This document shows, one piece after another, positions 3,615 through 60,871 of a DNA stretch of 64,000 nucleotides. The stretch's first letter is position 1. Every line of letters begins with the position of its first letter. A program made the position numbers and the translations under genes. This stretch comes from an uncultured Gemmatimonadota bacterium (GTDB lineage Bacteria; JAAXHH01), in NCBI GenBank assembly GCA_951812955.1, contig OX638340.1, forward strand, positions 1,632,001 through 1,696,000, given 5' to 3'. The notes beneath the pieces are model-generated. The model saw nothing but the letters and a program-made list of their open reading frames with translations. It had not been told where the DNA came from and did no database searches.

Positions 3615-5597
<1,983 letters not shown>

Positions 5598-5609
5598 GGG
5601 GAGCAAAAG

Positions 5610-5647: not shown

Positions 5648-5680
5648 GGTGGTCTATTTCTCAAGAATTCCAGCGGCCAA

Positions 5681-6229: not shown

Positions 6230-6274
6230 GGTTGATTCCTTTATTGGGTGTGCTTCACGTCAATCGGGACCATT

Positions 6275-6727
6275 TCACGCCCCTTCAAGCATCTCCAGGT
6301 CCGCCAGATCTCTCTGCCTGCCTGTCGCCCGTTTGTTCTTGATGAATTGATCGCGTCCGATGTAATGAACTTGGATATCCCCGTATGTACCGCGCACTCG
6401 CCCTTTGTTCGCTTCGCTCCACGAAACGCCCGTCAGTGAGTTTAAGATATCCAGTCGTACTGGAGGCACACCTAATTGTAGTACCGATTCGGCTGTTAAG
6501 AAATCTTCCGCGGTCAGCCCCAGATCACCAAACCCGAATTCATCAAGAACGATGGCCATGCGCTTGGCATTCACAGCGTCCGATTTGATATAGACATCAA
6601 GATCCCCTGTGTATCGAGGCGCCCCGTGAAAGGCCAGGGCATGTCCTCCGACGATCATGTACTCAACGTGATGAGCGTTTAATAACGCGAGCAACGCACT
6701 GAAGTCGGGGTCTGCCTTTATGTCCAT
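6275..6727 (-). CDS. Minimal nucleotidyltransferase (MNT)-fold protein
   Basis: hGG...x13...TGDLDVYI fits the MNT signature (GS-x9-13-DhDh). Confidence 0.5.
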   Translation of the reverse strand: MDIKADPDFSALLALLNAHHVEYMIVGGHALAFHGAPRYTGDLDVYIKSDAVNAKRMAIVLDEFGFGDLGLTAEDFLTAESVLQLGVPPVRLDILNSLTGVSWSEANKGRVRGTYGDIQVHYIGRDQFIKNKRATGRQRDLADLEMLEGA

Positions 6728-6872
6728 AGAGCTGGTTTCGGAGGTATTCGACCGCGGCGATCCGTTCTTCCGGCGTTTTGCTCAACCAGTAGGCAAGATC
6801 GTCCGTCGTGGCGGATTTATCGTCCAGGGGTCGTTTTCCTACTTTCTTCTCAATCATGAATCGACCTCCCAT
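6663..6872 (-). CDS. Small ORF (69 aa) immediately upstream of the MNT gene and overlapping it by ~65 nt; possible partner gene or a frameshifted N-terminal fragment
   Basis: ORF track only. The overlap geometry is seen in the sequence. Confidence 0.25.
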   Translation of the reverse strand: MGGRFMIEKKVGKRPLDDKSATTDDLAYWLSKTPEERIAAVEYLRNQLYGHKGRPRLQCVARVIKRSSR

Positions 6873-7039
6873 TACCGGTGGGTTTACTCAAATTAGCTCA
6901 TGAATCATGAAGTGTCAACCTGATAGAGCGTACGACCAGTGTAGGAGACTTTCGTTGACATGCTCAAGAATCCGATGTATTTTGATACCTATGCAATCAA
7001 TTGACATTAAACTACTTCTCTTGTAATCAAGGTGCTGCC

Positions 7040-7261
7040 ATGAGTCAAATCACAGCAAGGGTTCCGGACAGCCTCGTCGAAGCACTTGATGCGGCGGCGG
7101 CAGAACTGAAAAGAAGTCGTGCCGCGCTTGTACGTCAAGCGCTTGAGCGATATCTTGAGGACTACGACGACCTCAGCGTAGCAATCGAACGTCTACGCGA
7201 TCCTTCTGATCCCGTGCTCGACTGGGACAAGGTCAGGAATGAGTTACTCGATTCACATTAA
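7040..7261 (+). CDS. Type II antitoxin, RelB/DinJ/ParD-like ribbon-helix-helix
   Basis: MSQITARVPDSLVEALDAAAAELKRSRAALVRQALERYLED, plus the C-terminal DPSDPVLDWDKVRNEL tail typical of RelB-type antitoxins. I chose the start at the Met of MSQITARV; the ORF track begins at 7001. Confidence 0.7.
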   Translation: MSQITARVPDSLVEALDAAAAELKRSRAALVRQALERYLEDYDDLSVAIERLRDPSDPVLDWDKVRNELLDSH

Positions 7262-7499
7262 GAAAAGTGCGGCCAAAGAACTGGCGCGTATTGCTTCGAA
7301 CGACCGTGGCCGCGTCATTCGTGCGATCGATCAACTAAAAGACCACCCTTACTCAGGCAGTCCTTTGAAAGGTGAGTTACGCGGCATCCGGCGAATTCGA
7401 GTGGGCGATTACCGTGTGTTGTACGAAGTCGGTGTAGAAGAACTCACCATACTCATAGTACGGGTAGCCACTCGAGAGGAAGTACACCGTCGTGGATGA
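7239..7499 (+). CDS. Type II toxin, RelE/ParE family
   Basis: 86 aa, with a RelE-like core (RIRVGDYRVLYEV...LTILIVRVATREEV). It overlaps the antitoxin by 23 nt, which is typical of coupled toxin-antitoxin operons. Confidence 0.8.
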   Translation: MSYSIHIKKSAAKELARIASNDRGRVIRAIDQLKDHPYSGSPLKGELRGIRRIRVGDYRVLYEVGVEELTILIVRVATREEVHRRG

Positions 7500-7592
7500 T
7501 CTAACCAGTATCGGTTTAAGAGCCAAAAGATACGCGTTGATTCTGCCGTGGTGGCCATGTAAAATCTTCCTGAATCCAACCCGGGAGGCACC

Positions 7593-8762
7593 ATGGCAAT
7601 AGACAGCACCGCAGACCCTCTCGCAATTACCCTCGGCGTCGAGGAAGAATTCTTCCTCATCGATCCGGAAACGCGCGATCTGCTGCCGGATCCGGACCCG
7701 CATATATTCCAGGAATGTGAGAAGAACCGCGGGGACCACAAGGTCGTGGCCGAGTTCCTCCGCTCCCAGATCGAGACTACAACTCGGGTCTGCTCCTCCG
7801 TGACGGAAATCCATACTTCCCTGCTAGAGACCCGCCGCCTTGTCATCGCCGCGGCGGCAAAACATGGCGCCGCGGTACTGGCCGCTTCCACCCACCCCTT
7901 CGCGGCCTGGCACCAGCAGGTTCCAACGGCCGATCAGCGCTACGAACAGTTTGCCATGACTTACCAGCAGGCCGTAAGGGAACTGCTCGTGGGCGGCATG
8001 CACATCCACGCGGGTTTCGGCGACCCCGACAGCCGCGTGCGGGTCATGACGGCGATGCGTCGTTATATGCCGCTGCTCCACGCGTTATCCGCTTCCTCTC
8101 CCTTCAACAGCGGACGGGAGACCGGCTTCAAGTCGTATCGGCTGACCCTCTTCGGCAGCTTGCCGCGCACGGGTCTGCCGGGGCCGCTTCACTCCTGGGC
8201 GGAATTCGAGAAACTGGTCGAAGAATACCAAAGGTTGGAGTTCATCCAGGACAGCAGCGAGCTGTGGTGGGATATCCGTCCTTCCCGGGCCTTCCCTACC
8301 CTGGAACTGCGCATCTGCGACATCTGCCAGACCGTGGACGACGCCATGTGCGTCGTGGCGCTCTATGCGTGTCTCGTGCGATACCTGCTTCGGCTGGACA
8401 TGGAAGGGCGGCTTCCGACGGAACCGCCGACGGAACTGATCAAGGAAAACTGCTGGCTCGCCCAGCGTTACGGCGTGGTTGCTTTCCTGGGCGACACAGA
8501 GGGATCGGGCCGTCAGGATATCGATGAGTACGCCGAAGCCCTGGTCGAGAATCTGTCCGAAGACGCCAAGGCCCTCGGATGCGAAAACGAACTGCGCCAC
8601 ATTCTGGACCTCATCCGGTACGGCACTGGATCGGACCGGCAGATCGACCACTACAGACTTCGACGACTGGAAGGGGATTCGGAGGAGGAGGCCCTGCGGG
8701 CGGTCGTGGATCTCGTGGTCGCAGAGACCGGAAACGGCCTGGATGCGCCGGACGGGGCGTGA
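7593..8762 (+). CDS. Carboxylate-amine ligase, YbdK/GCS2 family (putative glutamate--cysteine ligase 2)
   Basis: LGVEEEFFLID N-terminal motif, the HIHxG segment, and 389 aa length match YbdK-type ligases. Confidence 0.85.
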   Translation: MAIDSTADPLAITLGVEEEFFLIDPETRDLLPDPDPHIFQECEKNRGDHKVVAEFLRSQIETTTRVCSSVTEIHTSLLETRRLVIAAAAKHGAAVLAASTHPFAAWHQQVPTADQRYEQFAMTYQQAVRELLVGGMHIHAGFGDPDSRVRVMTAMRRYMPLLHALSASSPFNSGRETGFKSYRLTLFGSLPRTGLPGPLHSWAEFEKLVEEYQRLEFIQDSSELWWDIRPSRAFPTLELRICDICQTVDDAMCVVALYACLVRYLLRLDMEGRLPTEPPTELIKENCWLAQRYGVVAFLGDTEGSGRQDIDEYAEALVENLSEDAKALGCENELRHILDLIRYGTGSDRQIDHYRLRRLEGDSEEEALRAVVDLVVAETGNGLDAPDGA

Positions 8763-10938: not shown

Positions 10939-13725
10939 TCACTCCTTGTACTGATTCACCACAGGCACCACCGGCACGGTCCTCCTTGCCGCTACCCGCA
11001 CCAACGACGCCAGCCCCGTCGGAGCGTCTTCGCCGACGCTGAACTGATCGACGTCCTCATCTGCACTCCCCACCGGCGATGCAATCCCAGTCTCCGCGTT
11101 CAGTGTGTACAATTTAGCGGTCCATCCGCCGGTCATGTACAACACGCCTCTGTGTGAGGTCAGCCCGGTCGGCAGGTCTTCTCCGACACCGAAGTCAGTC
11201 ACGTCGCCAACGGGTGAGGCGGCTCCCGTGGCAGGATTCAATACGTATAGTCGGGCCGAGTTGTAACCGACCATGAACAGATCGCCCCCGTGGGACGCAA
11301 GACCGAAGGGATGGTTTTCGCCGGCCCCGAACTCCACGGCATTACCGACCGGGGCAGCTTTCCCTGTCACGGTATCCAGCGCGTAAAGTCTGGTATTCGT
11401 CCCGCCGGCCATGTACAGCGTTCCGTTGTGGGACGCCAGACCCATGGGCTGCGATTCGCCGACTCCGAATTCCACGGCGTCCCCGACCTGCGTGGCCACG
11501 CCCGTTTCCGGATCCAGCGTATACAGCGCCGCGTTCCATCCTCCCGTCATGTACAAAACGCCGTGATGCGCGGCCAGTCCGTACGGCTGGTACTCGTCGG
11601 CGTCGAATCGAACGGCCTCTCCCACAGGTTTGGCTTCCCCGGTATTCGGATTCAGTCTATACAACTGGTCGTTGCCTTCACCCACCATGAGTAGACCTTC
11701 GACGAAGCCGGCTTCGTCGCACCGCGATCCCATCCATTCATCCAGGCCATCGACCCAGGCTAGCAAAGCTGGGGTGCTCGGTAAGCACAGGCCGTCGTTC
11801 TCGTGAAAGAGAAAATCGGTGACATCGCTTAGACCCGAGAAAGTCTCGGGTACAGTACCTGTGAACTGATTGTCATGGAGATACATCACCTCCAGGTCGT
11901 CGAGTATTCCCAGTTCAGGTGGAACGGGACCGGATAATTCGTTATCGAAAAGGTACAGCGCTTCGAGATCCTGGAGCCGTCCGAATTCGGCAGGAATAGA
12001 CCCGGACAACTGGTTGTTATGGAGATAAAGAAACTCGAGATTGGCGAGTTGACTCAGTTCTACAGGTATCGGTCCTGTTAGCTGGTTTCCATAGAGACTC
12101 AGCAGGCGCAGCTTGGGTTGATCACCAAAGACTGCCGGGATCTCGCCAGAAAGATTGTTGGAGTTGAGGTACAGAATCTCGAGATTGTGGAACTGACCCA
12201 GTTCGGCAGGAATCGGTCCGGACAGCTGATTCTCATCAAGATCCATACGTTCCAGGTTTTCCAGTTGACCCAATTCAACCGGGATCCCTCCTGACAGTTG
12301 GTTCTGCCACAGGTTCAGAAATTCAAGGCTTTCCAGGTTACCCATCTCCGGCGGGATTGAACCGGTCAGCTTGTTCGTATACAGGTGCATTATTTCCAGA
12401 TTATACAACTGCCCCAGTTCGGCGGGTATCGATCCGGTAAGTTCGTTTCGTTGCAGGCTCATGAACTCGAGATTGGCGAGTTGACCCAGTTCCGGCGGGA
12501 TCGAACCGGTCAGATCATTGCCAGCCAGGTCCAGCCGCTTCAGGCTGGTCAATTGCCCAAGGTCTCCGGGGATCGATTCCGACAGGCTGTTGTTACCGAG
12601 ATTCAACACCTCCAGGTAGGCAAGCGAAGCGAGTTCATCTGGAACGGTTCCGGAGATTTCGTTGGCGCCAAGATCAATGATCCTGAGCTCGTCGAGCTGG
12701 GAAAGTGCGACTGGGATGGCGCCCGATACCTGGTTGTGCGCCAAATCCAGTTCCCTCAGCAGGGACAGATTGACGAGGTTTCCGGGCAACCCGCCCGACA
12801 GGTTGTTCGTCCGCAGTTCAAGCCGTATCACCCGTCCGTTGGCGTCGGTCGTCACGCCGTGCCATTCGGTCAGGGGTTCTTCACTCAGCCAGTTCTCGCT
12901 TTCATTCCAGTTCGAACCATCCAACGCATGGTAGAAATCGACCAGCGTGGTACGTTCGCTTTTATCGATGGCCACCGTTACGGGCACGGTGACCGAAACC
13001 TCGCCGGAGGAAACGGTAACGACCGCGGTACCGCTCCCCAGGGCCGTAATCGTGCCGTCGTTGCTCACGGTTGCCACCGACTCGTCGCTGATTACCCATT
13101 TCACCGCCGTGCCATCGATGACCTGGCCGTTTTCGTCGAGAACGGAGGCCTTAAGACTTACTGACTCGCCGGTCGCGGTCAGCGTTACCGACGGAGGTTC
13201 AACCAATATCGTCCGTGCCGACTGGGATACGGAAACCGTAGACTTTCCCTGTTTCTGTCCCACGGTAGCGGTAATATCAGCCGTACCGTTACTGAGCGCG
13301 GTGACGAGTCCTCCACTGGTCACGGATGCAACCGAAGGATTCCGGCTCGACCAGACTACCTCGTGTCCCGAAATCGTCGCGCCGGTCTCGTCCTGCACCT
13401 GTACGGCAAGTTGCAGGGACTGGCCGATCGCAGTCAGCGTAACCGTGTCAGGAGTCACGACAACGGCAGCCGGACCGGATGACCTGGTGGGACCGTCCTT
13501 GCCGCAGGAGGCCAGCGCAAACAGTGCGAGGAAGCAGAAGAGACGGATCCCATTCCTACGGGTGGAATTCCATCGACCGGTGTTCTTTTTGACCCGTAAC
13601 CTGCTGGCAGATGGAGATGACAGCGATTTGCGACCGCAATGACGGTGAAAATGCATATGAGAATACCTTTTAAAGTTTGGTCTATGATTGGCTGCGCGGG
13701 CGAATCGGGCGCTCGATGTGGACAC
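10939..13725 (-). CDS. Large lipoprotein/surface protein: bacterial Ig-like (Big_2-like) domains, then ~16 plant-type leucine-rich repeats, then 6 copies of a ~45-aa C-terminal repeat
   Basis: Lipobox-like LFALASCG. Ig-like segments (VTPDTVTLTAIGQSLQLAVQV...). A 24-aa LRR unit repeated (LxxLxxLxLxxNxLSGxIPxELGxLxNL). C-terminal repeats of the form YTLNxETGxAxPVGxAVEFGVGExxPxGLASHxGxLYMxGG. The true start is probably inside the listed ORF; there is no ATG immediately before the signal peptide. Confidence 0.7.
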   Translation of the reverse strand: MSTSSARFARAANHRPNFKRYSHMHFHRHCGRKSLSSPSASRLRVKKNTGRWNSTRRNGIRLFCFLALFALASCGKDGPTRSSGPAAVVVTPDTVTLTAIGQSLQLAVQVQDETGATISGHEVVWSSRNPSVASVTSGGLVTALSNGTADITATVGQKQGKSTVSVSQSARTILVEPPSVTLTATGESVSLKASVLDENGQVIDGTAVKWVISDESVATVSNDGTITALGSGTAVVTVSSGEVSVTVPVTVAIDKSERTTLVDFYHALDGSNWNESENWLSEEPLTEWHGVTTDANGRVIRLELRTNNLSGGLPGNLVNLSLLRELDLAHNQVSGAIPVALSQLDELRIIDLGANEISGTVPDELASLAYLEVLNLGNNSLSESIPGDLGQLTSLKRLDLAGNDLTGSIPPELGQLANLEFMSLQRNELTGSIPAELGQLYNLEIMHLYTNKLTGSIPPEMGNLESLEFLNLWQNQLSGGIPVELGQLENLERMDLDENQLSGPIPAELGQFHNLEILYLNSNNLSGEIPAVFGDQPKLRLLSLYGNQLTGPIPVELSQLANLEFLYLHNNQLSGSIPAEFGRLQDLEALYLFDNELSGPVPPELGILDDLEVMYLHDNQFTGTVPETFSGLSDVTDFLFHENDGLCLPSTPALLAWVDGLDEWMGSRCDEAGFVEGLLMVGEGNDQLYRLNPNTGEAKPVGEAVRFDADEYQPYGLAAHHGVLYMTGGWNAALYTLDPETGVATQVGDAVEFGVGESQPMGLASHNGTLYMAGGTNTRLYALDTVTGKAAPVGNAVEFGAGENHPFGLASHGGDLFMVGYNSARLYVLNPATGAASPVGDVTDFGVGEDLPTGLTSHRGVLYMTGGWTAKLYTLNAETGIASPVGSADEDVDQFSVGEDAPTGLASLVRVAARRTVPVVPVVNQYKE

Positions 13726-48412: not shown

Positions 48413-50233
48413 CTACTCCTCGCCCACGATGGGCTTGATGTCGTCGATGGACCGCCAGAGGGCGTCTTCGAAGAGCGTCATGGGCTTGCTGCCATAGGTA
48501 TCCACCCATTGCTTCGACAGGATCAGGATGGCGTCCACCGTCAACGTCTCCACGCTGCTGTCGAGATAGCCGAAGAGCCAGCCCTCCTGAAGTTCCGGGT
48601 AGGTCTCGTGGGGGATCGACGCCACCTCGTAGATCGTGTTGCCGAACTGATCCACGGCCGTGCTGAAATAGTGCTCGTCCACGGCGACCATGCTCAGCTG
48701 TCCACCGTATTGCCGGTCCGCATCCTTCAGCAGTTCGGAGTTTAACCCGGCGACGAACAACATGACCGAGTTGGGATCCCCGGCCACCTGGCTCAGGGCC
48801 TCATCGTAGCTGGCGAACCGCGTGTTGAACTCCCCGTACCTGGGATCCTGGAGGACGAATCCTTCCCAGGCCCTGTGGGTACCAGAACCGCGGGGACCGA
48901 CGTACACGATATGGGTGTTCGGCTGGAGGTCCGAGACGCTTGCGATGCCCCCGCCCTCATTGACGATCAACTGCACGTACTCGGTGTACAGGGTGGACTG
49001 CAGCCCGACCAGTTGTTCCGCCGAAGCCGGGTTCTTCCTCAGGTAGGAGTTCAGAATGTCGCTTTGCACGAGCACCGCGTCGGCCTGGTTCTGGACCAGG
49101 TTGTTCAGGTTTTCTTCCGAACCGGCCGTCGTCTGGAGCATCACGTCGAAATCAGGCAGGTGAGACTGCAGGATCTGGCCGAATCGATGGTAGTTGCCGT
49201 TCTCCACCCCGGTGTTCACCGTGATGCGCGGCTGGTTCGGATCGGCGGTGGCCACGACTTCGGCGGCCAGGGCGATCGCCGGGGTCACCCCTGGCGGCAG
49301 GTATTCGGGATCTCTGGGCGTGCCTTCCAGCGTGGCGACCTGCTTGTCCAGTTCATCCAGCTTCGCGCGCAGTTCCGCGTTGTCCTCGGCCAGGCGTTCG
49401 GCCTCGCCGCGCCACTCCTTGTAACCCGGATCATTGGCGTGATGGTGGGCCATGGCGTAGTGACGGCGGCTGCTCATCATGTCCAGCATAGACCACATGA
49501 ACAGGGCGTCCCACATCCCAAAGCTGGGATAGGACATGAAGGCGTATCCCGGCGTGCGCCAGCCCATGCCCCCGTAGTAGCTGTCCCGGCCGGCATAGTA
49601 ATTGTCGTAGGAGGTGCGGTTCTGCGAGCCCCGTTGGTATATCCCGTTGTCCCGGTACGTGCTCGTGTTTGCGGCCGAGTTGGACGACCGGGCGAATCCG
49701 GACTGTCGCGACTGGTGGGTGTTCAGCGACCTGCGGGCCGTCTCGCTCTGTACCCGCCTGCCCATGACCGATGACCGGGCCGTGGCCCGTCCGGTCGAAG
49801 CGCCCGAGACCGCACCGCCGGCCCGGGTGGACCTGGCCGCGGTGGCCGTGGACCGCTGGGCGGACGTGCTTCGTGCCGGCGTGGCGGACTGGCCCGTTGT
49901 GCGGGCGGGTGTCTGCCGCGTGGCGGTGGTTGTACTTTTCCGTGAGAAAATGCTGCGGCGGCCGAATGAACTGCGGCGGTTCCAAAGCGACCGCGAACTG
50001 CGGAATCCACCGAAACCGCGGCGTGCGTAGGCTTCTTCAGGGCTGAACAGTCCGGTGATCTGCCGTATCGTTCGGTCCGCGTTATCCGCGCTTTCCACGG
50101 GTGGCACGGCATCGTCGATCGACCGCACACGGTCCGTCAATCCGGGACTGTTGCCACCCGGACTGATCTGCAGAAACCCGCCTGTCAGCACGAGCAAGCC
50201 GGCAATCATAAGCAGTTTTAATTTTCGAGACAT
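48413..50233 (-). CDS. Secreted/membrane-anchored protein: signal, ~150-aa Ser/Thr/Arg-rich low-complexity region, coiled coil, and a C-terminal TAXI-like (TRAP-associated) periplasmic-binding-fold domain
   Basis: N-terminal LKLLMIAGLLVLTGG. The low-complexity region reads RQTPARTTGQSATPARSTSAQRST... The C-terminal ~300 aa resemble TAXI-family solute receptors (GVENGNYHRFGQIL...). That assignment is from memory and weak. Confidence 0.4.
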   Translation of the reverse strand: MSRKLKLLMIAGLLVLTGGFLQISPGGNSPGLTDRVRSIDDAVPPVESADNADRTIRQITGLFSPEEAYARRGFGGFRSSRSLWNRRSSFGRRSIFSRKSTTTATRQTPARTTGQSATPARSTSAQRSTATAARSTRAGGAVSGASTGRATARSSVMGRRVQSETARRSLNTHQSRQSGFARSSNSAANTSTYRDNGIYQRGSQNRTSYDNYYAGRDSYYGGMGWRTPGYAFMSYPSFGMWDALFMWSMLDMMSSRRHYAMAHHHANDPGYKEWRGEAERLAEDNAELRAKLDELDKQVATLEGTPRDPEYLPPGVTPAIALAAEVVATADPNQPRITVNTGVENGNYHRFGQILQSHLPDFDVMLQTTAGSEENLNNLVQNQADAVLVQSDILNSYLRKNPASAEQLVGLQSTLYTEYVQLIVNEGGGIASVSDLQPNTHIVYVGPRGSGTHRAWEGFVLQDPRYGEFNTRFASYDEALSQVAGDPNSVMLFVAGLNSELLKDADRQYGGQLSMVAVDEHYFSTAVDQFGNTIYEVASIPHETYPELQEGWLFGYLDSSVETLTVDAILILSKQWVDTYGSKPMTLFEDALWRSIDDIKPIVGEE

Positions 50234-51829: not shown

Positions 51830-52276
51830 TCACCGCCTGAATCTGCCAGAACCGCCTCGCCCCATTTGCGATGCTTCCTCCACCAGTTTATCGAACGTCT
51901 TCATCGCGTCCGGCGAAAGCACACCCTTCAGGTTCGTCTTGAACTGCTTTTCGTTTTCCTCCAGTTGTTCACGCAGCCATTTCCAGTCTTCGGTCTTCCT
52001 GGCCTGTTCCAGCAGCGCGTCCTTCTGCGTTGATGCTTCCTTGACCATGGCGCGCAGTTGCAGCACCTGATCGTCGGTCGTATCCATGCGTATACTAAGC
52101 ACGTGCCAGATCTGATCGACACGGAAGGTGTTCATCGCTTGCATTTGTTCCAACATGGCACTGTTCTGTCCCCGGCCGCCCATTCGGCCGAATCCGCCTC
52201 GCTGCGCGGCCGCGTCGTTGGCGATATAGGCAATCATCATCAGGCCGATTACGGCAAGGTGAAGACGGTATTTCAT
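51830..52276 (-). CDS. Periplasmic LTXXQ-motif protein (Spy/CpxP-family-like), copy 3
   Basis: Signal peptide from MKYRLHLAVIGLMMIAYIANDAAAQ. Helical, with a TTDDQVLQL motif. The listed ORF begins at 52366. Confidence 0.5.
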   Translation of the reverse strand: MKYRLHLAVIGLMMIAYIANDAAAQRGGFGRMGGRGQNSAMLEQMQAMNTFRVDQIWHVLSIRMDTTDDQVLQLRAMVKEASTQKDALLEQARKTEDWKWLREQLEENEKQFKTNLKGVLSPDAMKTFDKLVEEASQMGRGGSGRFRR

Positions 52277-52369
52277 GCTATGACTCCCTTCAATTAGATG
52301 CCGCGGTCGGACTGGGGATCCTTCCGCGGCGGGTTCTCGCTCCAATAACCAGCGGTCAGCTAACAATTG

Positions 52370-52424
52370 AACGGTGAACTTTCATTCTAACGGTGGACTT
52401 TCATTCTAACGGTGGACTTCACTT
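52370..52424. repeat. 19-bp tandem direct repeat (AACGGTG[AG]ACTTTCATTCT) x2.8 between LTXXQ genes 2 and 3
   Basis: Seen directly at 52370-52388, 52389-52407 and 52408-52424 (degenerate). Confidence 0.55.
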
Positions 52425-53088
52425 AACGCCGGTCGCGGAATGATTCACGGCCTCCCCGGCGTCCGCGCATCCCGGAATCCCGGCGTCCGTCGCGCCGGTC
52501 GCGGAATGATTCGCGCAGCTCTTCCTGCTGTTCCGGTGTCAGCACGTTCTTGACCTCGGCGCGGAAGACGGCGCCTCGCTCGAACACGCTGCCCTGCGCC
52601 CTGGACACGGCCGCGGCCAGCTCTTTCACTTTTTCCAGGTCCGGGCTGGTCTCGCCCATCAACTCGTTCAGATCAATCCGTGCGAGCCTCGAATCGGCGC
52701 GAAGCTGGACCATGTCCCGTGCATACGCTGAACGCAGCGTGCTGATCTGTTCCTGTTGCTCGTCTGTGAGTTCGATATTGTTCAATGCCCTGCGGGACAG
52801 GTCGTTCCCGCGCGACCGGTCGTTCCCGCGGGACCTGCCGGTACGTGCTGCGTCGTTATCGGCAAGATTGTGGTCCAGGGCGTCGGCGAACTCTCCCGCT
52901 GATCCTGATTCCGCGAACTCGGCAATTAGCTCGAATTCGGATTCTGCCTCGTGCTCCGCGCCCGCCGTGGCGGCTTCGTGATGGCCGCCGCCCTCATTAT
53001 GACTGATCTTTCCCGCAGCATCGAAAGCCCAGGCCAGAACGGCCACGGACAGCGTGCCTGCGAAGATTCCTGTAATCATCTTTTTCAT
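52423..53088 (-). CDS. Periplasmic LTXXQ-motif protein (Spy/CpxP-family-like), copy 2
   Basis: Signal MKKMITGIFAGTLSVAVLAWA. Two LTxEQ motifs (LTDEQQEQI, LTPEQQEEL). His/Glu-rich N-terminal region. Confidence 0.55.
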   Translation of the reverse strand: MKKMITGIFAGTLSVAVLAWAFDAAGKISHNEGGGHHEAATAGAEHEAESEFELIAEFAESGSAGEFADALDHNLADNDAARTGRSRGNDRSRGNDLSRRALNNIELTDEQQEQISTLRSAYARDMVQLRADSRLARIDLNELMGETSPDLEKVKELAAAVSRAQGSVFERGAVFRAEVKNVLTPEQQEELRESFRDRRDGRRDSGMRGRRGGRESFRDRR

Positions 53089-53166
53089 GCTGTAGCTCCT
53101 TTCGAAATACACCCTGACTGAAATGGTCGCGATCTCCGGAGACCGTTTTCGTGCTTCTCTACATGA

Positions 53167-53196
53167 TTAGACTGGAATCGACGGAGTTTTATTCCC
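53167..53196 (-). promoter_or_regulatory. ECF-type promoter candidate upstream of LTXXQ gene 2: GGGAATAAAA-N14-GTCTAATC on the minus strand
   Basis: It resembles the RpoE-type -35 GGAAC / -10 GTCTAA consensus. The same motif with identical spacing recurs upstream of the ECF sigma gene. Confidence 0.45.
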
Positions 53197-53286
53197 TTTT
53201 TCTTTCGATTGCCTTTTCTTCTCATCTCCTATACCGGGCCCGGCATCCACAGCCGATCCCCAAGCCCGTTCCGGCGGCTCGAAGTT

Positions 53287-53766
53287 TTAATCGCCGTTGT
53301 TTCTCCGGTGCTCATCCGTCCGATCGTTCTCGTGGCTGCCGGATCCGTTACGTCCACCCGGCCTGTTGCGCTCCCGGCGCAAGTCGGGACCACCTTCCCG
53401 GCGGAACTCACGGGCGCGTTCGCGGCGCTGGCGGATACTCTTTATCCGCTCCAGCTGCCTTTCGGTGAGGATGGGTTCCAGGTCCCGATGCAACGAATCG
53501 ACCAGGGTCTGCATCTCGCGCCGGTGACGCATGTAATTCTCCCGGAATCCCGGTTCGTGTTCACCCACCACTTCCCTGATCCTTCGTATCTGCTCCTGGT
53601 CCGGACGCACCATTCTGACCCAGCGATCCACGAAGCGTTCCCGGGTCATCTGGGGCGGCGGCTGCAGGCGGTCCCGGGCGAAGGCGCCCAGGATCAACGC
53701 ACCGCATACCATGCCGATGATCAGCGTGGCCAGCAGAATGGCCGCGGTCTTCAAGTGGATGTTCAT
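53287..53766 (-). CDS. Membrane-anchored LTXXQ-motif protein, copy 1, translationally coupled to the anti-sigma gene
   Basis: N-terminal TM helix (AAILLATLIIGMVCGALILGAFA), an LTERQLERI motif, and an Arg/Glu-rich helical tail. Its start ATGA overlaps the upstream stop. Confidence 0.5.
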   Translation of the reverse strand: MNIHLKTAAILLATLIIGMVCGALILGAFARDRLQPPPQMTRERFVDRWVRMVRPDQEQIRRIREVVGEHEPGFRENYMRHRREMQTLVDSLHRDLEPILTERQLERIKSIRQRRERAREFRREGGPDLRRERNRPGGRNGSGSHENDRTDEHRRNNGD

Positions 53767-54227
53767 AATGCGCCCTCCGTTTCCAGTGCGATCCGCGCGT
53801 CATAGAGGTCTTCAGGGTACAGTTCCTCGGTCAGGCCGAAGGAAGCCGTGAAGGAGACGTTTCCGGTCGTGGCCAGGTTGTAGGTCAACAGCAGCATAGC
53901 GGCGATGGACGCGGCCACCGCCATTCTACGGAACATGAGGGACAACGCAGTCTGGAAATCATGCGTTGCTTCGGCGGTGGAATTCGACACCGGACCGGCC
54001 GCGGACTCCGTCGCCAGACGCTCCATGACCCGGTCGGTGAAGCCCGCCTGGAACGCCGGCGACTCCTGGCCTTCGACGAGACCGCGCAGGTGCATCAATC
54101 GTTCGTATTCTTCCCGAAGGCCCTGGTCGCGCAGGAGCGCCGCGTCCAGGCGGCTTCGTTCACCGGGCGTCAGGGACGTATCGAGCGACCGGTACAGCAG
54201 GTCCAGCTCAGACCGTTTCATGGACAA
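53763..54227 (-). CDS. Putative anti-sigma factor (single TM)
   Basis: 154 aa. It overlaps the 3' end of the ECF sigma gene. It has an N-terminal cytoplasmic helical region and a TM segment (MAVAASIAAMLLLTYNLATTG). Assigned by position and architecture. Confidence 0.5.
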   Translation of the reverse strand: MSMKRSELDLLYRSLDTSLTPGERSRLDAALLRDQGLREEYERLMHLRGLVEGQESPAFQAGFTDRVMERLATESAAGPVSNSTAEATHDFQTALSLMFRRMAVAASIAAMLLLTYNLATTGNVSFTASFGLTEELYPEDLYDARIALETEGAL

Positions 54228-54831
54228 GCTCCCTGTTGGAGTACAGAAGTAATCGTTTCAGCTTCTCCTGGGACCGCCTCAGACGGGAAAGGACCGTCCC
54301 GACGGGAATCCCCAGGATCTCGGCGGTTTCTTTCGTGGAATAGCCTTCCATCAGCCGGAGTACGATAACGGAACGGAATTCCGGTTTCAGTTCCTGCAGC
54401 GCCTGTTGAATCCGGTCGGCCGTGTCGTCGTATTCGGCGCTGGCCCGGGGGTCCGCATAATCCGCCTCCGGTTCGTTGCGGTCCCTGCCTGGCACGGCGA
54501 GGGGTACAATGATCGATCGGCGGCGACGTTTTCTGAGTTCGGAAATCGCCAGGTTGACGGCGATGCGAGTCAGGTAGGTGCCGACCGACGCCTGACCGCG
54601 GAACCCCCGGAGGCCGCGGTAAAAACGGATGAAGGTCTCCTGCCCCACGTCCTCCGCATCGGCGGTGTTCCCGAGCATGCGGATGACGACGGACGCCACG
54701 CGGTCCTTGTGACGTTCCACCAGTTCCCGGAAGGCATCTTCGCTTCCGTCGCGGGCGGCGTCGACCAATGCGGCGTCTTTCAAGGCGTCTTCCCTCATCC
54801 CGTCTCCCTCGAATAACCGTTTTCCGGTCAA
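54208..54831 (-). CDS. ECF-subfamily RNA polymerase sigma-70 factor (RpoE-like)
   Basis: Region 2 (FRELVERHKDRVASVVIRMLGNTADAEDVGQETFIRFYRGL) and region 4 (LKPEFRSVIVLRLMEGYSTKETAEILGIPVGTVLSRLRRS). Start may be the internal Met at 54798. Confidence 0.85.
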   Translation of the reverse strand: MTGKRLFEGDGMREDALKDAALVDAARDGSEDAFRELVERHKDRVASVVIRMLGNTADAEDVGQETFIRFYRGLRGFRGQASVGTYLTRIAVNLAISELRKRRRRSIIVPLAVPGRDRNEPEADYADPRASAEYDDTADRIQQALQELKPEFRSVIVLRLMEGYSTKETAEILGIPVGTVLSRLRRSQEKLKRLLLYSNRELVHETV

Positions 54832-55675: not shown

Positions 55676-56149
55676 ATGGCTTTCGATCACATGGATCAAC
55701 GGCGGATCATGGGGCATTTCGCGACCGGCGTGACCGTCGTAACCACCTGGCATGAAAATAAACCCCAGGGCATGACCGCAAACGCGGTGGCTTCGCTTTC
55801 TCTTGACCCTCCACTCGTCCTCGTATCGGTGGACGTCAAGGCCCAGATGAACGGCTGTCTCAAGGAAAGCAACTGCTTCGCCGTCAACATACTGACAGAG
55901 GCACAGGAAGCATGGTCCGTACGATTCGCTAAACACGGTCCGAAGGATTTCTCAGACATCGATTACCGTACCGAAACCACAGGCTCCCCCGTTCTCGAGC
56001 AGGCACTGGCCTATGTCGACTGCAGGGTCAAGGATATACTGCCGGGGGGGGACCACGACATCTTCATCGGCGAGATTGTAGCGGGAGGCGCCCGGGAAGG
56101 GCGCCCGCTGGTCTTCTACGGCGGTCAGTACGGCAGTCTTTCCGGCTGA
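55676..56149 (+). CDS. Flavin reductase-like (FMN-binding split-barrel) family protein
   Basis: HFATGVTVVTT...GMTANAVASLSLDPPLVLVSV pattern typical of the flavin reductase domain. 157 aa. Confidence 0.8.
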   Translation: MAFDHMDQRRIMGHFATGVTVVTTWHENKPQGMTANAVASLSLDPPLVLVSVDVKAQMNGCLKESNCFAVNILTEAQEAWSVRFAKHGPKDFSDIDYRTETTGSPVLEQALAYVDCRVKDILPGGDHDIFIGEIVAGGAREGRPLVFYGGQYGSLSG

Positions 56150-56195
56150 AACGCAACTGCTACTGTTCCGCCGACCCGTTTAATCCGGAGCGTTC

Positions 56196-57839
56196 ATGCA
56201 ATACGGTTTCATCATCGACAACAGGAAATGTATCGGGTGCCACGCCTGCACCGTCGCGTGCAAGGCCGAGCACGAGGTGCCCCTCGGCGTCAACCGGACC
56301 TGGGTGAAATACATCGAGAAGGGGACCTATCCGAACACGACCAGGCATTTCTCGGTCATGCGGTGCAATCACTGCGAGGACGCCCCCTGCGTGGAGATCT
56401 GCCCGGTGACGGCGCTGTATACGCGGAAAGACGGCATCGTGGATTTCGATCCACGCAGATGCATCGGATGCAAGGGCTGCATGCAGGCCTGCCCGTACGA
56501 CGCGCTCTACATCGACCCGGACACCCATACGGCGGCAAAGTGCAACTACTGCGCCCATCGGGTGGATATCGGCCTCGAACCCGCCTGCGTGAACGTCTGC
56601 CCTGAACACGCCATCATATCCGGCGACATGGACGATGATTCCACGGAGATCGCCCAGTTGCTCGCGAAGGAACAGGTGACGGTCCGCAAGGTGGAAAAGG
56701 ACACGAAACCCCGCCTGTACTATATCGACGGCGACGAAGCCTCGTTGACGCCCGGGGAAACCGCGACGTCCGACAATTACATGTGGAGCTCACAATCGGA
56801 CGGCGTGGGCCACTTCGCAAGATACATCGAGGAAAGGACCGCCCGCGCGAATCCGGAGGACATGGTCAGACAGCTTGGTGGGGAGAACCAGGGCGGACAG
56901 GTTGGCGGCGGGCAAGATGGCGCCGGCGTACGCGGCGAACAAGATAGCGACAAAGATGAGAGATCCGGCAAAGGCGCCGCGGCGCGCAGGGTCTACGACG
57001 CGCCGGACAAGGGCGTGCTGTGGGGAAACGACGTAGCCGCATACGTTTGGACCAAGGCCATCTCGGCGGGTGCTTTCCTCCTTCCCTTCGCGGCCTCGGT
57101 CCTGGGCATGACGATAGATCCTTTTCTTTCCTGGTTCGGAAGTACCATCGCCCTGACCTTTCTCCTGGCCACGACGATCCTCCTGGTGAGCGATCTGACC
57201 CAGCCCAGACGATTTCTCTATGTACTGCTCCGTCCTCAGTGGAAATCCTGGCTCGTGCTCGGAGGCTACGCGTTGACCCTCTACGGGCTGGCGCTCACGC
57301 TGTGGGCCGTGGCAATGTGGACCGGCCGAACCGGGGCTGCCGAAATCATCGGCTGGATCGCGGCCGTACTGGCGGTCCTTACGGCTGTATATACGGCCTT
57401 TCTATTCGCCCAGGCCAAAGGACGGGATTTCTGGCAAAGCCCCACGCTCGTCCTGCACATGCTGCTCCACGCGGTGCTCGCCGGCGCGGGGGTTTTCGCT
57501 ATCGCGCTTCTGTTCAGTGCGTCGGGCGAAGCGTGGACCGCCTTCGTCCGGAATACGCTGATCGTCGCCATCATCCTGAACCTGCTCGTAATCGCATCTG
57601 AAATGCTGACCCCCCATCCGACCGCCGACGCGCGGAAAGCCGTGCAGGCCATCGTCCGCGGCCGGTACCGGGGGTATTTCTGGATCCTGGGCATCGCCCT
57701 GGGCAACATAGCGCCCGTCGTACTGGCCTGGGCCGGTGGCGAAACGATGCTCGCCGCGGCCGGCGTGGGCGTGCTGATCGGCCTGTACGCGACCGAGTAC
57801 GTCTGGGTCAGGGCGCCGCAGGACATACCGCTGAGTTGA
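56196..57839 (+). CDS. Fusion of a four-cluster [4Fe-4S] ferredoxin subunit (PsrB/DmsB/SoeB-like) with an NrfD/PsrC-like integral-membrane quinone-interacting subunit; no signal peptide
   Basis: Four Cys clusters (CIGCHACTVAC, CNHCEDAPCVEICP, CIGCKGCMQACP, CNYCAH...CVNVCP), then ~8 hydrophobic TM helices in the C-terminal ~280 aa. The protein starts directly with the Fe-S domain (MQYGFIIDNRKCIGC). Confidence 0.8.
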   Translation: MQYGFIIDNRKCIGCHACTVACKAEHEVPLGVNRTWVKYIEKGTYPNTTRHFSVMRCNHCEDAPCVEICPVTALYTRKDGIVDFDPRRCIGCKGCMQACPYDALYIDPDTHTAAKCNYCAHRVDIGLEPACVNVCPEHAIISGDMDDDSTEIAQLLAKEQVTVRKVEKDTKPRLYYIDGDEASLTPGETATSDNYMWSSQSDGVGHFARYIEERTARANPEDMVRQLGGENQGGQVGGGQDGAGVRGEQDSDKDERSGKGAAARRVYDAPDKGVLWGNDVAAYVWTKAISAGAFLLPFAASVLGMTIDPFLSWFGSTIALTFLLATTILLVSDLTQPRRFLYVLLRPQWKSWLVLGGYALTLYGLALTLWAVAMWTGRTGAAEIIGWIAAVLAVLTAVYTAFLFAQAKGRDFWQSPTLVLHMLLHAVLAGAGVFAIALLFSASGEAWTAFVRNTLIVAIILNLLVIASEMLTPHPTADARKAVQAIVRGRYRGYFWILGIALGNIAPVVLAWAGGETMLAAAGVGVLIGLYATEYVWVRAPQDIPLS

Positions 57840-58009
57840 GTAGGACTTACCGCTGAGTTAAGAAGGACATAGCACCGAGCTGACATAAACGCTGCCTGGC
57901 CCGTTCCGGGAATCGGCACGGCCGGAAACTGCCCCGGGTTCGACGACATTCCACTGCCGCGGGCTCGACGACACAATGAAGGAAGACACAGCAGACAGGA
58001 ATCACCAAC

Positions 58010-60871
58010 ATGTCCATACGCCATAAACCGGGACTGATCGAATCGCTGGCCGAGAAAGTCGGCCTGATTCCCAACCTGCACGAAGAGGACGGACCGGATC
58101 TGCCCAGTCTCACCGAAGGCGGCGCGCTCACGGACTATCCGCCCCCTGACCAGTGGGACGACTGGGTGGAGTACGAGGCGCAGGACTGGCCGAAACAACA
58201 GGCCAAACACTACATGGTGGTGCCGACGGCCTGCTTCAACTGCGAGGCCGGGTGCGGACTCCTCAGCTACGTCGACAAGGAGACGATGGAAGTCCGCAAG
58301 TTCGAGGGGAACCCCTACCATCCCGCCAGCCGGGGACGCAATTGCGCCAAGGGTCCAGCGACCATAAACCAGATCCGTGACACGGACCGCATACTATACC
58401 CCATGCGCCGGTCCGGCGCCCGGGGAAGCGGGGAGTGGGAGCAGGTGTCCTGGGATACGGTGCTGGACGACATCGCGGCCCGGATACGGGAGCGGCTGCA
58501 ACAGGGCGCGAACAACGAAATCGCCTATCACGTGGGCCGGCCCGGGGCCGAAGGCTACATCGACCGCGTGCTCAAGGCCTGGGGCGTCGACGGGCACAAC
58601 AGCCACACCAACATCTGCTCGTCGGGCGCCCGCTTCGGCTACGCCCTATGGCATTTCTTCGACCGGCCGTCGCCCGACCACGCCAATGCGCGGTTTATCC
58701 TGCTGATCAGCGCTCACCTGGAATCGGGGCACTACTTCAATCCCCACGCACAGCGGATCATCGAGGGCATGATGAACGGCGCGAAGCTTGCCGTCATGGA
58801 CCCGAGACTGTCCAATACGGCCAGCATGGCCGACCACTGGTTGCCCACCTATCCCGGCAGCGAGGCCGCGGTATTGCTGGCCATGGCCAACGTCATCCTG
58901 CAGGACGGCCTTTACGATGCGGAGTTCATGAAGACGTGGGTGAACTGGCAGACCTACCTGGAGAAGGAACACCCGGAAGCACCGCGCACCTTCGATCGGT
59001 TCATCGAAGCGCTCAAGTCGGTCTACAGCGAGTACACGCCCGAGTTCGCCGAACAGGAGAGCGGCGTGCCGGCTGCCCAGATTGCCGAGATCGGCCGCGA
59101 GATCGGCCGGGCGGGATCGCGGTTCGCCACCCACAACTGGCGCAGCGCGGGTAGCGGAAACGCCGGCGGCTGGGCCGTGGCCCGCTGCCTCCACTTCCTG
59201 AACGTACTCACCGGCAGCGTGGGCACGGAGGGTGGGACCTCGCCGAGCGGGTGGAACAAGTTCAAACCCAACGTATTCGACCATCCCCCGGATCAGAAGT
59301 TTTGGAACGAACTGCATTTCCCGAAGGAATACCCCCTCTCCCACTACGAGATGAGTTTTCTCCTCCCCCATTTCCTGAAAGAAGGACGGGGGAAGCTGGC
59401 TGTCTACTTCACCCGGGTGTTCAATCCCGTGTGGACGTACCCGGACGGGTTTACCTGGGTCGAAGCGCTCCGCGATGAGGAGAAGGTCGGGCTGCACGCG
59501 GCCCTGACGCCTACGTGGAACGAGACCGCCTTTTTCGCCGACTACGTACTGCCCATGGGCCACGCCAGCGAACGCCACGACATTATCAGCTACGAGACCC
59601 ACTCGGGCACCTGGATCGGTTTCCGCCAGCCCGTCCTGCGCGAGGCCCGGCGTCGCATGGGCGACCCGGTGGATTTCACCTACGAGGCGAACCCCGGCGA
59701 GGTATGGGAAGAGGACGAGTTCTGGATCGAGCTGTCCTGGCGCATCGATCCCGACGGCAGCCTGGGGATCAGGGACCACTTCATCTCGCCGTACAGGCCG
59801 GGTGAGAAAATCACCATCGACGAATACTACCGGTACATCTTCGACAACGTGGACGGACTGCCCGAGGCCGCCGCGAAAGAGGATCTTTCAACTCTGGATT
59901 ACATGCGAAAGTACGGCGCCTTCGAGGTGGAGAAGACGGCCTACGCGAAACATCTCAAGACACTGGACGACGAGGCCGTCGCGGGCGCTAAGGTCGATCC
60001 GGAGACCAATGCCCTGGTCGCAGGCGGCAAGACCGTGGGCGTGATGGTGGACGGCGCGCCGCGGGCGGGCTTCCCCACGCCGTCTCTGAAGCAGGAGTTC
60101 TATTCCCAGACCATGGTGGACTGGGGCTGGCCGGAGTACGCCATACCCACCTACATCAAGAGCCACGTGCATCCCGACGAACTCGACCGTGAGAACGGCG
60201 AGTACCCGCTGGTGCCCACCTTCAGGCTGCCCACACTGATCCACTCGCGGTCCGGCAACGCCAAGTGGCTCAACGAGATCTCCAACCGCAATCCCGTGTG
60301 GATGCACCGGCGGGACGCCGAAAAGATGGGCATTGGCACGGACGACCTGGTCCGGGTGACCACCGAAATCGGCCATTTCGTCGACCGCGTCTGGGTCACC
60401 GAGTCCATGAAACCCGGAGTCGTCGCCTGCTCCCACCATCTCGGGCGCTGGCGGCGCAAACAGGACGCGGACGGAAACCGCTGGTCGGTGAACCTGGTGG
60501 ATATCCAGGAAGAGGACGGCGGGAAGTGGCGCATGCGTGTGATGGACGGAATCAGACCCTATGAAAGCGCAGACCGCGACTCCTCGCGCATCTTCTGGCG
60601 GGACGGCGGCGTGCACCAGAACATCACCTTCCCCGTGCACCCAGATCCCGTGAGCGGCATGCACTGCTGGCACCAGAAGGTCAAAGTGGAAAAGGCCCGC
60701 GAAGAGGACGCCTACGGGGACGTGATGGTGGATACGGAGAAGTCCTTCGAAGTCTACCGCGCATGGCTGGACCAGACCCGGCCCGCGCCAGGTCCGGGCG
60801 GCCTGCGCCGTCCCCTCTGGTTCAACCGACCCCTGCGTCCGGCCGAAGAGACCTTCTACCTGCCTGAATAG
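58010..60871 (+). CDS. Molybdopterin (bis-MGD) oxidoreductase catalytic subunit, DMSO-reductase superfamily; no Tat signal; SoeA-like candidate
   Basis: 953 aa. N-terminal Fe-S cluster motif CFNCEAGCGL...C. Size and domain order are those of MopB/Molybdopterin/Molydop_binding proteins. The N-terminus (MSIRHKPGLIESLAEKVG...) has no RR motif or hydrophobic h-region. Confidence 0.8.
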   Translation: MSIRHKPGLIESLAEKVGLIPNLHEEDGPDLPSLTEGGALTDYPPPDQWDDWVEYEAQDWPKQQAKHYMVVPTACFNCEAGCGLLSYVDKETMEVRKFEGNPYHPASRGRNCAKGPATINQIRDTDRILYPMRRSGARGSGEWEQVSWDTVLDDIAARIRERLQQGANNEIAYHVGRPGAEGYIDRVLKAWGVDGHNSHTNICSSGARFGYALWHFFDRPSPDHANARFILLISAHLESGHYFNPHAQRIIEGMMNGAKLAVMDPRLSNTASMADHWLPTYPGSEAAVLLAMANVILQDGLYDAEFMKTWVNWQTYLEKEHPEAPRTFDRFIEALKSVYSEYTPEFAEQESGVPAAQIAEIGREIGRAGSRFATHNWRSAGSGNAGGWAVARCLHFLNVLTGSVGTEGGTSPSGWNKFKPNVFDHPPDQKFWNELHFPKEYPLSHYEMSFLLPHFLKEGRGKLAVYFTRVFNPVWTYPDGFTWVEALRDEEKVGLHAALTPTWNETAFFADYVLPMGHASERHDIISYETHSGTWIGFRQPVLREARRRMGDPVDFTYEANPGEVWEEDEFWIELSWRIDPDGSLGIRDHFISPYRPGEKITIDEYYRYIFDNVDGLPEAAAKEDLSTLDYMRKYGAFEVEKTAYAKHLKTLDDEAVAGAKVDPETNALVAGGKTVGVMVDGAPRAGFPTPSLKQEFYSQTMVDWGWPEYAIPTYIKSHVHPDELDRENGEYPLVPTFRLPTLIHSRSGNAKWLNEISNRNPVWMHRRDAEKMGIGTDDLVRVTTEIGHFVDRVWVTESMKPGVVACSHHLGRWRRKQDADGNRWSVNLVDIQEEDGGKWRMRVMDGIRPYESADRDSSRIFWRDGGVHQNITFPVHPDPVSGMHCWHQKVKVEKAREEDAYGDVMVDTEKSFEVYRAWLDQTRPAPGPGGLRRPLWFNRPLRPAEETFYLPE

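Follow-up and report, generated by a model that had tools for sequence, protein, structure and literature searches.

A signal-less two-gene molybdoenzyme from a Gemmatimonadota bacterium, a candidate sulfite:quinone oxidoreductase facing the cytoplasm

A window of 64,000 nt (the whole stretch of DNA analysed, from contig OX638340.1 of an uncultured Gemmatimonadota bacterium) was examined for the gene set at 55676-60871, which consists of three genes on the same strand. The second gene encodes an iron-sulfur protein fused to a membrane anchor (designated BC) and the third the catalytic subunit of a molybdoenzyme (designated A); the pair and its relatives are referred to below as the family. Together the two genes encode a complex iron-sulfur molybdoenzyme (CISM) of two polypeptides instead of three. 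The genes and features are as follows:

55676-56149, + strand: flavin reductase of the HpaC/RutF type, 157 aa (PF01613 Flavin_Reduct, E=1.4e-42)
56196-57839, + strand: fused electron-transfer and membrane-anchor subunit BC, 547 aa (open reading frame [ORF] with Pfam domains Fer4_11 and NrfD)
56196-56765, + strand: N-terminal PsrB/TtrB-like domain of BC, aa 1-190, with four [4Fe-4S] motifs, signal-less and predicted to be cytoplasmic
56766-57011, + strand: linker of BC, about aa 191-272, of low complexity and rich in Gly, Gln and Asp, ahead of the first transmembrane (TM) helix
57012-57839, + strand: quinone-interacting membrane domain of BC, NrfD/PsrC-type, with 8 TM helices, N-in/C-in (PF03916, residues 273-537)
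57820-57871, + strand: 22-bp tandem repeat, 2.4 copies (Tandem Repeats Finder score 83)
58010-60871, + strand: catalytic molybdopterin subunit A of the bis(molybdopterin guanine dinucleotide) (bis-MGD) type, 953 aa, signal-less (Pfam domains)
58232-58345, + strand: FS0 [4Fe-4S] site, C75-x2-C78-x3-C82 ... C112 (invariant columns in the A-subunit alignment)
58616-58618, + strand: codon of Cys203, the predicted molybdenum ligand, in the motif HTNICSSGAR (alignment with PsrA and ArrA)

In BC, Pfam places Fer4_11 at residues 52-144 ahead of the NrfD domain. The N-terminal part has 16 cysteines in four CxxCxxCxxxC-type groups (C12/15/18/22, C57/60/65/69, C89/92/95/99 and C116/119/131/135), all of them invariant in an alignment of 54 homologues; it shares 41% identity with Thermus PsrB, and its top NCBIfam match is TtrB (186.8 bits, under the cut-off of that model). 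The linker shows little conservation in the alignment and a predicted local distance difference test score (pLDDT) below 50. Eight TM helices were recognized in the membrane part both by hydropathy and in the AlphaFold model (pLDDT about 90 there), and the nearest fold is that of ActC of alternative complex III. The four ferredoxin-type cysteine clusters and about eight TM helices that an earlier note had read from the DNA are thus agreed upon by Pfam, the invariant cysteines, hydropathy and AlphaFold, with the four-cluster iron-sulfur module and the haem-less 8-TM NrfD/PsrC anchor of a CISM joined in a single chain. The same fusion was found in 118 of 118 full-length BC homologues (61-98% identity).

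Subunit A contains the Pfam domains Molybdop_Fe4S4, Molybdopterin and Molydop_binding. The FS0 motif (C75, C78, C82 and C112) is present in 231 of 239 family A subunits, and the molybdenum-ligand motif around Cys203, which aligns with the ligand Cys173 of Thermus PsrA and with the corresponding Cys of ArrA, in 230 of them. The AlphaFold model of A (pLDDT 87, predicted TM score 0.89) has ArrA and PsrA as its nearest solved folds (19-22% identity), with ArrA being the top structural match. None of the curated NCBIfam models reached its cut-off for A; the best score was that of PhsA (184 vs 694 bits), and DmsA/YnfE (180 vs 778), ArrA (116 vs 1600) and TtrA (114 vs 1750) were likewise far below. 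No window protein matched a Soe model in NCBIfam.

The BC-A pair recurs thousands of times in public data and is therefore not a chance juxtaposition. At 50% identity, one full-length representative (P0241), also with a fused BC gene upstream, stands for the whole family. BC matches from Gemmatimonadota are 85-98% identical, and the best 120 A matches, among which KSB1, Calditrichota, Bacteroidota/Flavobacteriales, Pyrinomonadaceae and SAR324 are named, are 72-94% identical. A subunits of about 60% identity occur in members of the Vicinamibacteria, Actinobacteria and Chloroflexi, and those encoded on megaplasmids of Thermomicrobium roseum, Rhodococcus jostii RHA1 and several haloarchaea are 57-62% identical. 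The family thus extends over Gemmatimonadota, Bacteroidota, Acidobacteriota, Actinobacteria, Chloroflexi, KSB1, Calditrichota, Myxococcota, SAR324 and haloarchaea; all of these except Calditrichota, Myxococcota and SAR324 are covered by an overall identity range of 58-77%. In 80 metagenome loci (60-73% identity, median length 9.5 kb, 37 of them at least 10 kb long), a fused BC gene lies directly upstream of A in 62, BC is in two overlapping ORFs in 1, and in 6 the contig end truncates the locus; a further 11 have no BC gene, and 8 of these begin about 1.1 kb or less from a contig end. The placement of a fused BC gene upstream of the 953-aa catalytic gene, as described earlier, therefore holds for this locus and is that of a fixed two-gene unit in its relatives.

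A few members depart from this arrangement. Only in locus L037 (53-1676) are the Fe-S part and the NrfD part assigned to separate, overlapping ORFs (53-772 and 717-1676), which is probably due to a frameshift or an assembly error rather than a true split. In L003 (Pyrinomonadaceae, GCA_041394845.1; 5544-10862) the A gene has no adjacent anchor gene, and a type II restriction-modification pair, an Eco57I-like methylase and a BsuBI/PstI endonuclease, occupies the usual position of BC upstream of A. P0244 (1220 aa, 48% identical) is a signal-less, atypical relative whose FS0 site looks degenerate in the first 90 residues, with 'TAAGGHPNACGLL' instead of CxxCxxxC, and may be a cluster-less variant.

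The family is large, very conserved, unnamed in annotation and unreached by curated models; its members bear generic database names or are called 'formate dehydrogenase'. The latter name would suit a formate:quinone oxidoreductase comparable to the tentative FqoABC of Calisto & Pereira 2021, as would the report of FqoC in Actinobacteria, Chloroflexi and Chlorobi (PMC8076601), the first two of which overlap with the family. However, A scored 152 bits against a cut-off of 666 with the Fdh-alpha model and 106 against 814 with that of FDH-N alpha. In formate dehydrogenases a His follows the active-site selenocysteine or Cys, whereas the molybdenum-ligand motif of the family is C-S-S/A-G (HTNIC-S-S), with no His after the Cys. 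Since, in addition, no formate-related neighbours were seen and the neighbourhood is sulfur-related (see below), formate oxidation is considered very improbable.

The BC and A genes are separated by 170 bp in the window, whereas 36 related loci have a median spacer of about 12 bp and a relative that is 94% identical has one of 31 bp. The tandem repeat at 57820-57871 copies the 3' end of the BC gene and its stop codon into this spacer: the first copy of the 22-bp unit, AGGACATACCGCTGAGTTAAGA, consists of the last 20 nt of the gene plus the stop codon. The spacers had no Rfam match to a molybdenum cofactor riboswitch or other RNA family, and nothing beyond shuffle expectation was detected between the genes when sigma-70 promoters and intrinsic terminators were sought.

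Since the ORF tool gives the first possible start after a stop, neither the BC nor the A frame can be extended upstream. For A, an in-frame stop is at 57977-57979 and no ATG, GTG or TTG occurs between it and 58010, so that reassessment of the start revealed no hidden twin-arginine signal. BC begins only 11 residues ahead of its first cluster Cys, which leaves no room for a signal peptide, and this Cys occupies position 12 in 117 of the 118 homologues. A twin-arginine translocation (Tat) signal, i.e. a twin-arginine motif with a hydrophobic region, was found in 0 of 239 family A subunits by a test that was positive in 4 of 5 Tat-type relatives, and a Tat-like signal in 0 of 118 BC homologues. 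These results uphold the earlier statement that neither protein has a Tat or Sec signal.

The topology of the anchor points in the same direction. In the 118 BC homologues, the mean number of Lys plus Arg residues is 10.5 in loops 2-3, 4-5 and 6-7 plus the C-terminus and 1.3 in loops 1-2, 3-4, 5-6 and 7-8, a strong N-in/C-in signature which predicts that the Fe-S domain, and with it the catalytic subunit, lies on the cytoplasmic side. The NrfD subunits of Tat-type relatives have the opposite charge bias (by eye from the alignment, about 9 vs 4 in L015, with a similar picture in Sulfurovum), suggesting that the anchor has been inverted together with the cofactor domains. An inverted anchor was previously hypothesised for SoeC (PMC8076601). 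The cytoplasmic orientation envisaged in the earlier note is thus supported by the lack of signals across the family, by the conserved positive-inside bias and by its reversal in the Tat-type relatives. Periplasmic cofactor domains would require a missed signal peptide, hitch-hiking on a Tat partner or dual Sec-Tat integration; that the nearest outside relatives are Tat-exported, and that dual Sec-Tat membrane proteins with Fe-S domains exist, would be in keeping with this. An eLife paper on dual Sec-Tat proteins is reported to describe an internal twin-arginine motif followed by the cofactor domain, which lies C-terminal to the TM helices, whereas the Fe-S domain here is N-terminal, from residue 1. 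Since, moreover, the ORFs cannot be extended, no family member has a Tat motif, no gene for a Tat-signal partner is conserved in the two-gene unit, and the charge bias is both strong and inverted relative to Tat-type anchors, a periplasmic location appears extremely improbable.

The nearest relatives of A outside the family, P0247, P0265 and P0302 (33-48% identity), have clear Tat signals and share with the family its specific 'YPP..W' motif before FS0. Tat-type operons have the order B - C(NrfD) - A, with B and C as separate genes. The A gene of P0247 (L015) is followed by genes for a NarJ/TorD-type chaperone and a polyferredoxin and has a cytochrome c gene upstream, the P0265 locus consists of B-C-A only, and similar arrangements are found on plasmids of Azoarcus sp. 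KH32C and Sulfurovum mangrovi. The DLxQPxRF and C-terminal PQxIPLS motifs occur both in the Tat-type NrfD subunit and in the NrfD domain of BC. No sulfur-related neighbours were seen beside the Tat-type operons. In a neighbour-joining tree (883 columns, 100 bootstraps), the fused family formed one group (81% bootstrap), which was joined with the three Tat-type representatives and P0245 at 100%; a second, distinct clade (77%) contained Azoarcus and other Tat-type representatives of the Psr-like kind, and Salmonella PhsA and E. coli DmsA fell outside both. As the nearest outside relatives are already B-C-A, the BC-then-A order has been inherited from B-C-A ancestors. The 'reversed gene order' of the earlier note is therefore not that of a rearranged soeABC.

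The Tat-type sister operons (L015, ENA k141_53373, 1745-8720; L108, 4461-8748; L007, 6296-14187) are themselves unnamed. Their genes run in the order (ParA-like, cytochrome c) - FeS B - NrfD C - large A of 915-1115 aa - chaperone of the NarJ/TorD type - polyferredoxin of 360 aa; in L015 the ParA-like gene is at 857-1732. The Azoarcus copy adjoins arsenic-resistance genes and an aioXSR-like three-gene regulatory set.

Apart from molybdenum-cofactor genes, the only recurrent functional theme beside the BC-A pairs is cytoplasmic sulfur chemistry. Genes in the 80 metagenome loci include those for a SulP/STAS permease (20 loci), a metallo-beta-lactamase (MBL)-rhodanese fusion of the persulfide dioxygenase (PDO)-rhodanese type (PDO-Rhod; 13), an ArsR-type regulator (6), DsrE (4), YeeE (3) and TusA (2), as well as a NarJ-like chaperone (4) and MoeB, MoaE or MobA (3-4 each). 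At least one sulfur-related neighbour is present in 17 of the 37 loci of at least 10 kb. The following arrangements are worth noting: 1) BC-A-SulP in Flavobacteriales; 2) PDO-Rhod-SulP-(YeeE-YeeE or a Pyr_redox_2 gene)-BC-A in L004 and L006; 3) BC-A-Rrf2-TusA in SAR324; 4) DsrE-TusA-BC-A-Mrp in R. jostii RHA1, with three genes of the MBL fold (PDO-like) and an ArsR gene nearby; 5) CsoR-like regulator-BC-A in T. roseum; 6) BC-A-Mrp in Natrinema; and 7) sigma54 activator-PDO-Rhod-YeeE-YeeE-BC-A in Myxococcota, the host of the most divergent signal-less member.

Two other neighbours were observed. A gene for an Mrp/NBP35 (ParA-type) Fe-S carrier ATPase lies right after A in Rhodococcus (L009, 10832-12001) and Natrinema (L019, 11032-12192) and is absent from the 80 metagenome loci; it may encode a dedicated maturation factor. 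A gene for an LplA/B-type lipoate-protein ligase is near BC-A in 4 of the 80 loci (L089, 1262-2233, and three others); since the sulfur-oxidising sHdr-LbpA system is accompanied by ligases of this kind, the pair may be linked to it.

The same pair in many phyla, often beside genes of sulfur detoxification, makes sulfite oxidation, yielding sulfate, the most likely function. PDO makes sulfite in the cytoplasm and, where a cytoplasm-facing molybdoenzyme wired to quinone adjoins a permease of the sulfate family, a sulfite:quinone oxidoreductase would be expected; we regard this as the probable, though far from assured, function of the pair. The domains, the cofactor motifs, the lack of signals, the topology by charge bias, the conserved gene pair and the neighbour counts were observed; substrate, direction and quinone coupling are inferred. 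In the proposed mechanism, sulfite supplied by PDO-Rhod or other cytoplasmic reactions would be oxidised in the 953-aa subunit, at the Mo-bisMGD centre with its Cys203 ligand, and the electrons would pass via FS0 and then the four [4Fe-4S] clusters in the N-terminal domain of the 547-aa subunit to a quinone bound in its C-terminal NrfD domain, which would sit upside-down in the membrane relative to the periplasmic Psr/Ttr-type anchors. A SulP-type permease would export the sulfate. The enzyme would thus work like SoeABC, and this functional analogy, drawn in the earlier note, is strengthened by relatives that adjoin genes for PDO-Rhod, SulP, YeeE, DsrE and TusA and for regulators of the ArsR, CsoR, Rrf2 and sigma54 types. 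Room for an unrecognised sulfite-oxidising enzyme also exists in this phylum, since a survey of 495 Gemmatimonadota metagenome-assembled genomes (MAGs) found sulfide:quinone oxidoreductase (SQR) in most genomes, the sulfite oxidase SUOX in one small group only, and no Soe (PMC11316326).

Several observations weigh against sulfite oxidation. The 64-kb window itself contains no other sulfur-oxidation genes and no homologues of PDO, SulP, YeeE, DsrE or TusA (nor any of Mrp), and about half of the long loci have no sulfur-related neighbour; SulP and YeeE may go with PDO rather than with the molybdoenzyme. The Fe-S domain of BC was modelled poorly by AlphaFold2. The closest curated families and solved structures (PhsA, DmsA, PsrA and ArrA) are reductases, and in this superfamily the substrate is unreadable from sequence.

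These similarities raise the alternative of a cytoplasm-facing reductase, modelled on Psr, Phs, Ttr or the Aquifex 'bacterial Sre' enzyme, which would transfer electrons from quinol to thiosulfate, polysulfide, an organic persulfide or tetrathionate and would process thiosulfate imported by YeeE. It would accord with PhsA and TtrB as top curated matches of A and the Fe-S domain, with PsrA and ArrA as nearest solved structures, with the YeeE-type transporters, TusA and DsrE adjoining BC-A in several loci, and with the work of Wells et al. (PMC10100899), who assign SoeA and the sulfur reductase of Aquifex to a single lineage. However, all the curated matches are far under their cut-offs, and the commonest neighbours, the sulfate-family permease and the O2-dependent, sulfite-producing PDO, indicate an oxidative, aerobic pathway. 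The hosts, moreover, include Flavobacteriales, Pyrinomonadaceae, Rhodococcus and Thermomicrobium, which are mostly aerobic heterotrophs. A reductase is therefore judged unlikely.

The ArsR-family regulators that are frequent beside family members, together with ArrA as the top structural match of A, could also be taken to indicate oxidation or detoxification of another cytoplasmic oxyanion (arsenite/thioarsenate, selenite or tellurite), and a signal-less Soe-like enzyme of Thioalkalivibrio ('Soe-like cluster 2') has been proposed to be an arsenite oxidase (PMC6620896). However, no ars, aio or arx genes were found beside family members in the loci inspected, the only arsenic genes seen being those by the Azoarcus relative, a Tat-type enzyme that does not belong to the family. 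Furthermore, ArsR-type regulators of the BigR/SqrR group encoded next to PDO and rhodanese genes are typically sensors of sulfane sulfur. An oxyanion other than sulfite is accordingly a quite unlikely substrate, and the oxidation of sulfite is preferred.

The flavin reductase gene, 46 bp upstream of BC on the same strand, is retained in the closest relative (L017, 94% identical). Its product was considered as a subunit of the enzyme and rejected, since a flavin reductase gene is beside BC-A in 0 of the 80 metagenome loci; it is probably a lineage-specific neighbour that is not part of the enzyme. The other genes in the window are housekeeping or unrelated. Upstream of the operon, a cluster on the - strand (51830-54831), which is syntenic in the same closest relative, encodes an extracytoplasmic function (ECF) sigma factor, a putative anti-sigma factor (by position, with no family hit), an unassigned protein of 159 aa, an LTXXQ/Metal_resist protein and a second small protein with a weak, sub-threshold match. 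A 606-aa protein (48413-50233, - strand) has a Ser/Thr/Arg/Ala-rich low-complexity N-terminal region of about 200 residues followed by an NMT1_3-type solute-binding domain. The 928-aa protein encoded at 10939-13725 (- strand), with bacterial Ig-like (Big_2) domains, a long leucine-rich-repeat region and Kelch-like motifs, is unusual amid Gemmatimonadota housekeeping genes.

Whether the family belongs to the known Soe enzymes was approached through the literature and through searches. Against membership, SoeC was found only in Proteobacteria, Aquificae and a few Clostridia by Calisto & Pereira 2021 (PMC8076601), who do not mention a fused form, and Soe was reported absent in the survey of Gemmatimonadota (PMC11316326); its absence was also reported for marine sediments (PMC12345210). 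In favour of membership, Wells et al. 2023 (PMC10100899) described the bSreA/SoeA lineage as a large 'unappreciated' radiation of low sequence diversity with a few archaeal members, a description that resembles the present family, and Williams et al. 2022 (PMC9324843) placed CISM catalytic subunits of Candidatus Electryoneota with SoeA. Part of the family may already be covered by the SoeA radiation of the literature. Three large protein searches, with A, BC and P0245 as queries, returned only family members. In a separate search of representative sequences, the only clear signal-less full-length ones were P0241, P0244 and P0245, the other long ones checked having Tat signals. P0245 (42% identity), considered as a proteobacterial SoeA, proved to be a divergent family member. 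A tblastn search against 72,556 plasmids revealed no soeABC operon: no proteobacterial plasmid match to A exceeded 31% identity, except that of the campylobacterotal Sulfurovum (38%), and the SoeA candidates from plasmids of Caballeronia, Bradyrhizobium, Rhizobium, Pseudohalocynthiibacter, Variovorax, Phaeobacter and Thioclava were unrelated soluble molybdoenzymes. A published Sulfobacillus soeC primer for quantitative PCR, used as an exact pattern on genome contigs, hit only a chance site in a Bacteroidales MAG. The plasmid matches and the representative search, too, count against membership. Taken together with the range of SoeC and the Gemmatimonadota survey, they imply one of two things for SoeA: an identity to the family of at least about 50%, or a relationship to it no closer than that of PhsA.

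It is possible, and is proposed here tentatively, that the pair represents a so far unnamed lineage of sulfite:quinone oxidoreductases, spread over many phyla and even across domains, which arose independently of the proteobacterial SoeABC from a Tat-exported B-C-A enzyme. Such an origin would have involved loss of the signal peptide, fusion of the Fe-S and NrfD subunits and a flip of the anchor in the membrane. Heterotrophs with SQR and PDO make sulfite in the cytoplasm, and for most of them no sulfite-oxidising enzyme is annotated; if the proposal is correct, the pair would supply the missing sulfite-to-sulfate step of the SQR/PDO pathway, a step invisible to standard annotation, in those Bacteroidota, Acidobacteriota, Gemmatimonadota, Actinobacteria, Chloroflexi and haloarchaea that carry it, and sulfur inventories based on KEGG or NCBI models would overlook a common, energy-linked, sulfate-forming reaction. 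In addition, homologous NrfD anchors in both orientations among closely related enzymes, one of them locked by fusion to a cytoplasmic Fe-S domain, amount to a natural experiment in topology and bear on the question of energy conservation by NrfD-type subunits. The family has a wide distribution and strong conservation, lacks annotation and can be tested, with members in cultivable or manipulable organisms such as R. jostii RHA1 (plasmid pRHL3), T. roseum and Natrinema species, and may fill this gap in heterotrophic sulfur oxidation.

Among the closest known systems is SoeABC (Allochromatium vinosum Alvin_2491-2489; Aquifex aeolicus aq_1234/1232/1231), the comparison being based on its described features. 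In both, the catalytic subunit has about 950 aa and no signal, and it contains FS0 and a Mo-bisMGD centre ligated by Cys (a Cys ligand is listed for SoeA by Wells et al. 2023, PMC10100899). Both also have a four-cluster Fe-S module, an 8-TM NrfD-like anchor predicted to be inverted, with the cofactor domains on the cytoplasmic (N) side, and, for the family loci, a genomic tie to cytoplasmic sulfur oxidation that produces sulfite. They differ in the fusion of B and C here, in the gene order (BC-A here, A-B-C in SoeABC), in the source of sulfite, which here would be PDO-rhodanese rather than rDsr or sHdr, and in their phyletic ranges, which are largely complementary. Since three separate subunits in A-B-C order were looked for and two polypeptides in BC-A order were found, the pair is not classed as a member of SoeABC.

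The Tat-type B-C-A operons contain the nearest relatives of A and share the gene order, the 'YPP..W' motif and the NrfD motifs, but they have twin-arginine signals, separate B and C genes and anchors of opposite charge bias. With PsrABC, PhsABC and ArrAB (2VPW, 6CZ7) the pair shares the CISM architecture, the Cys molybdenum ligand, the PsrB-like Fe-S domain and the NrfD-type anchor, whereas its A subunit has an identity of only 19-25% with theirs and exceeds them in length by about 200 residues; they are periplasmic reductases, exported by the Tat route, of three (or two) separate polypeptides encoded in A-B-C order. The Salmonella ttrBCA genes have the order B-C-A. The pair resembles TtrBCA in this type of order and in having TtrB as the top curated match of its Fe-S domain, but Ttr is Tat-exported with B and C separate, and the TtrA model is far from matching A.

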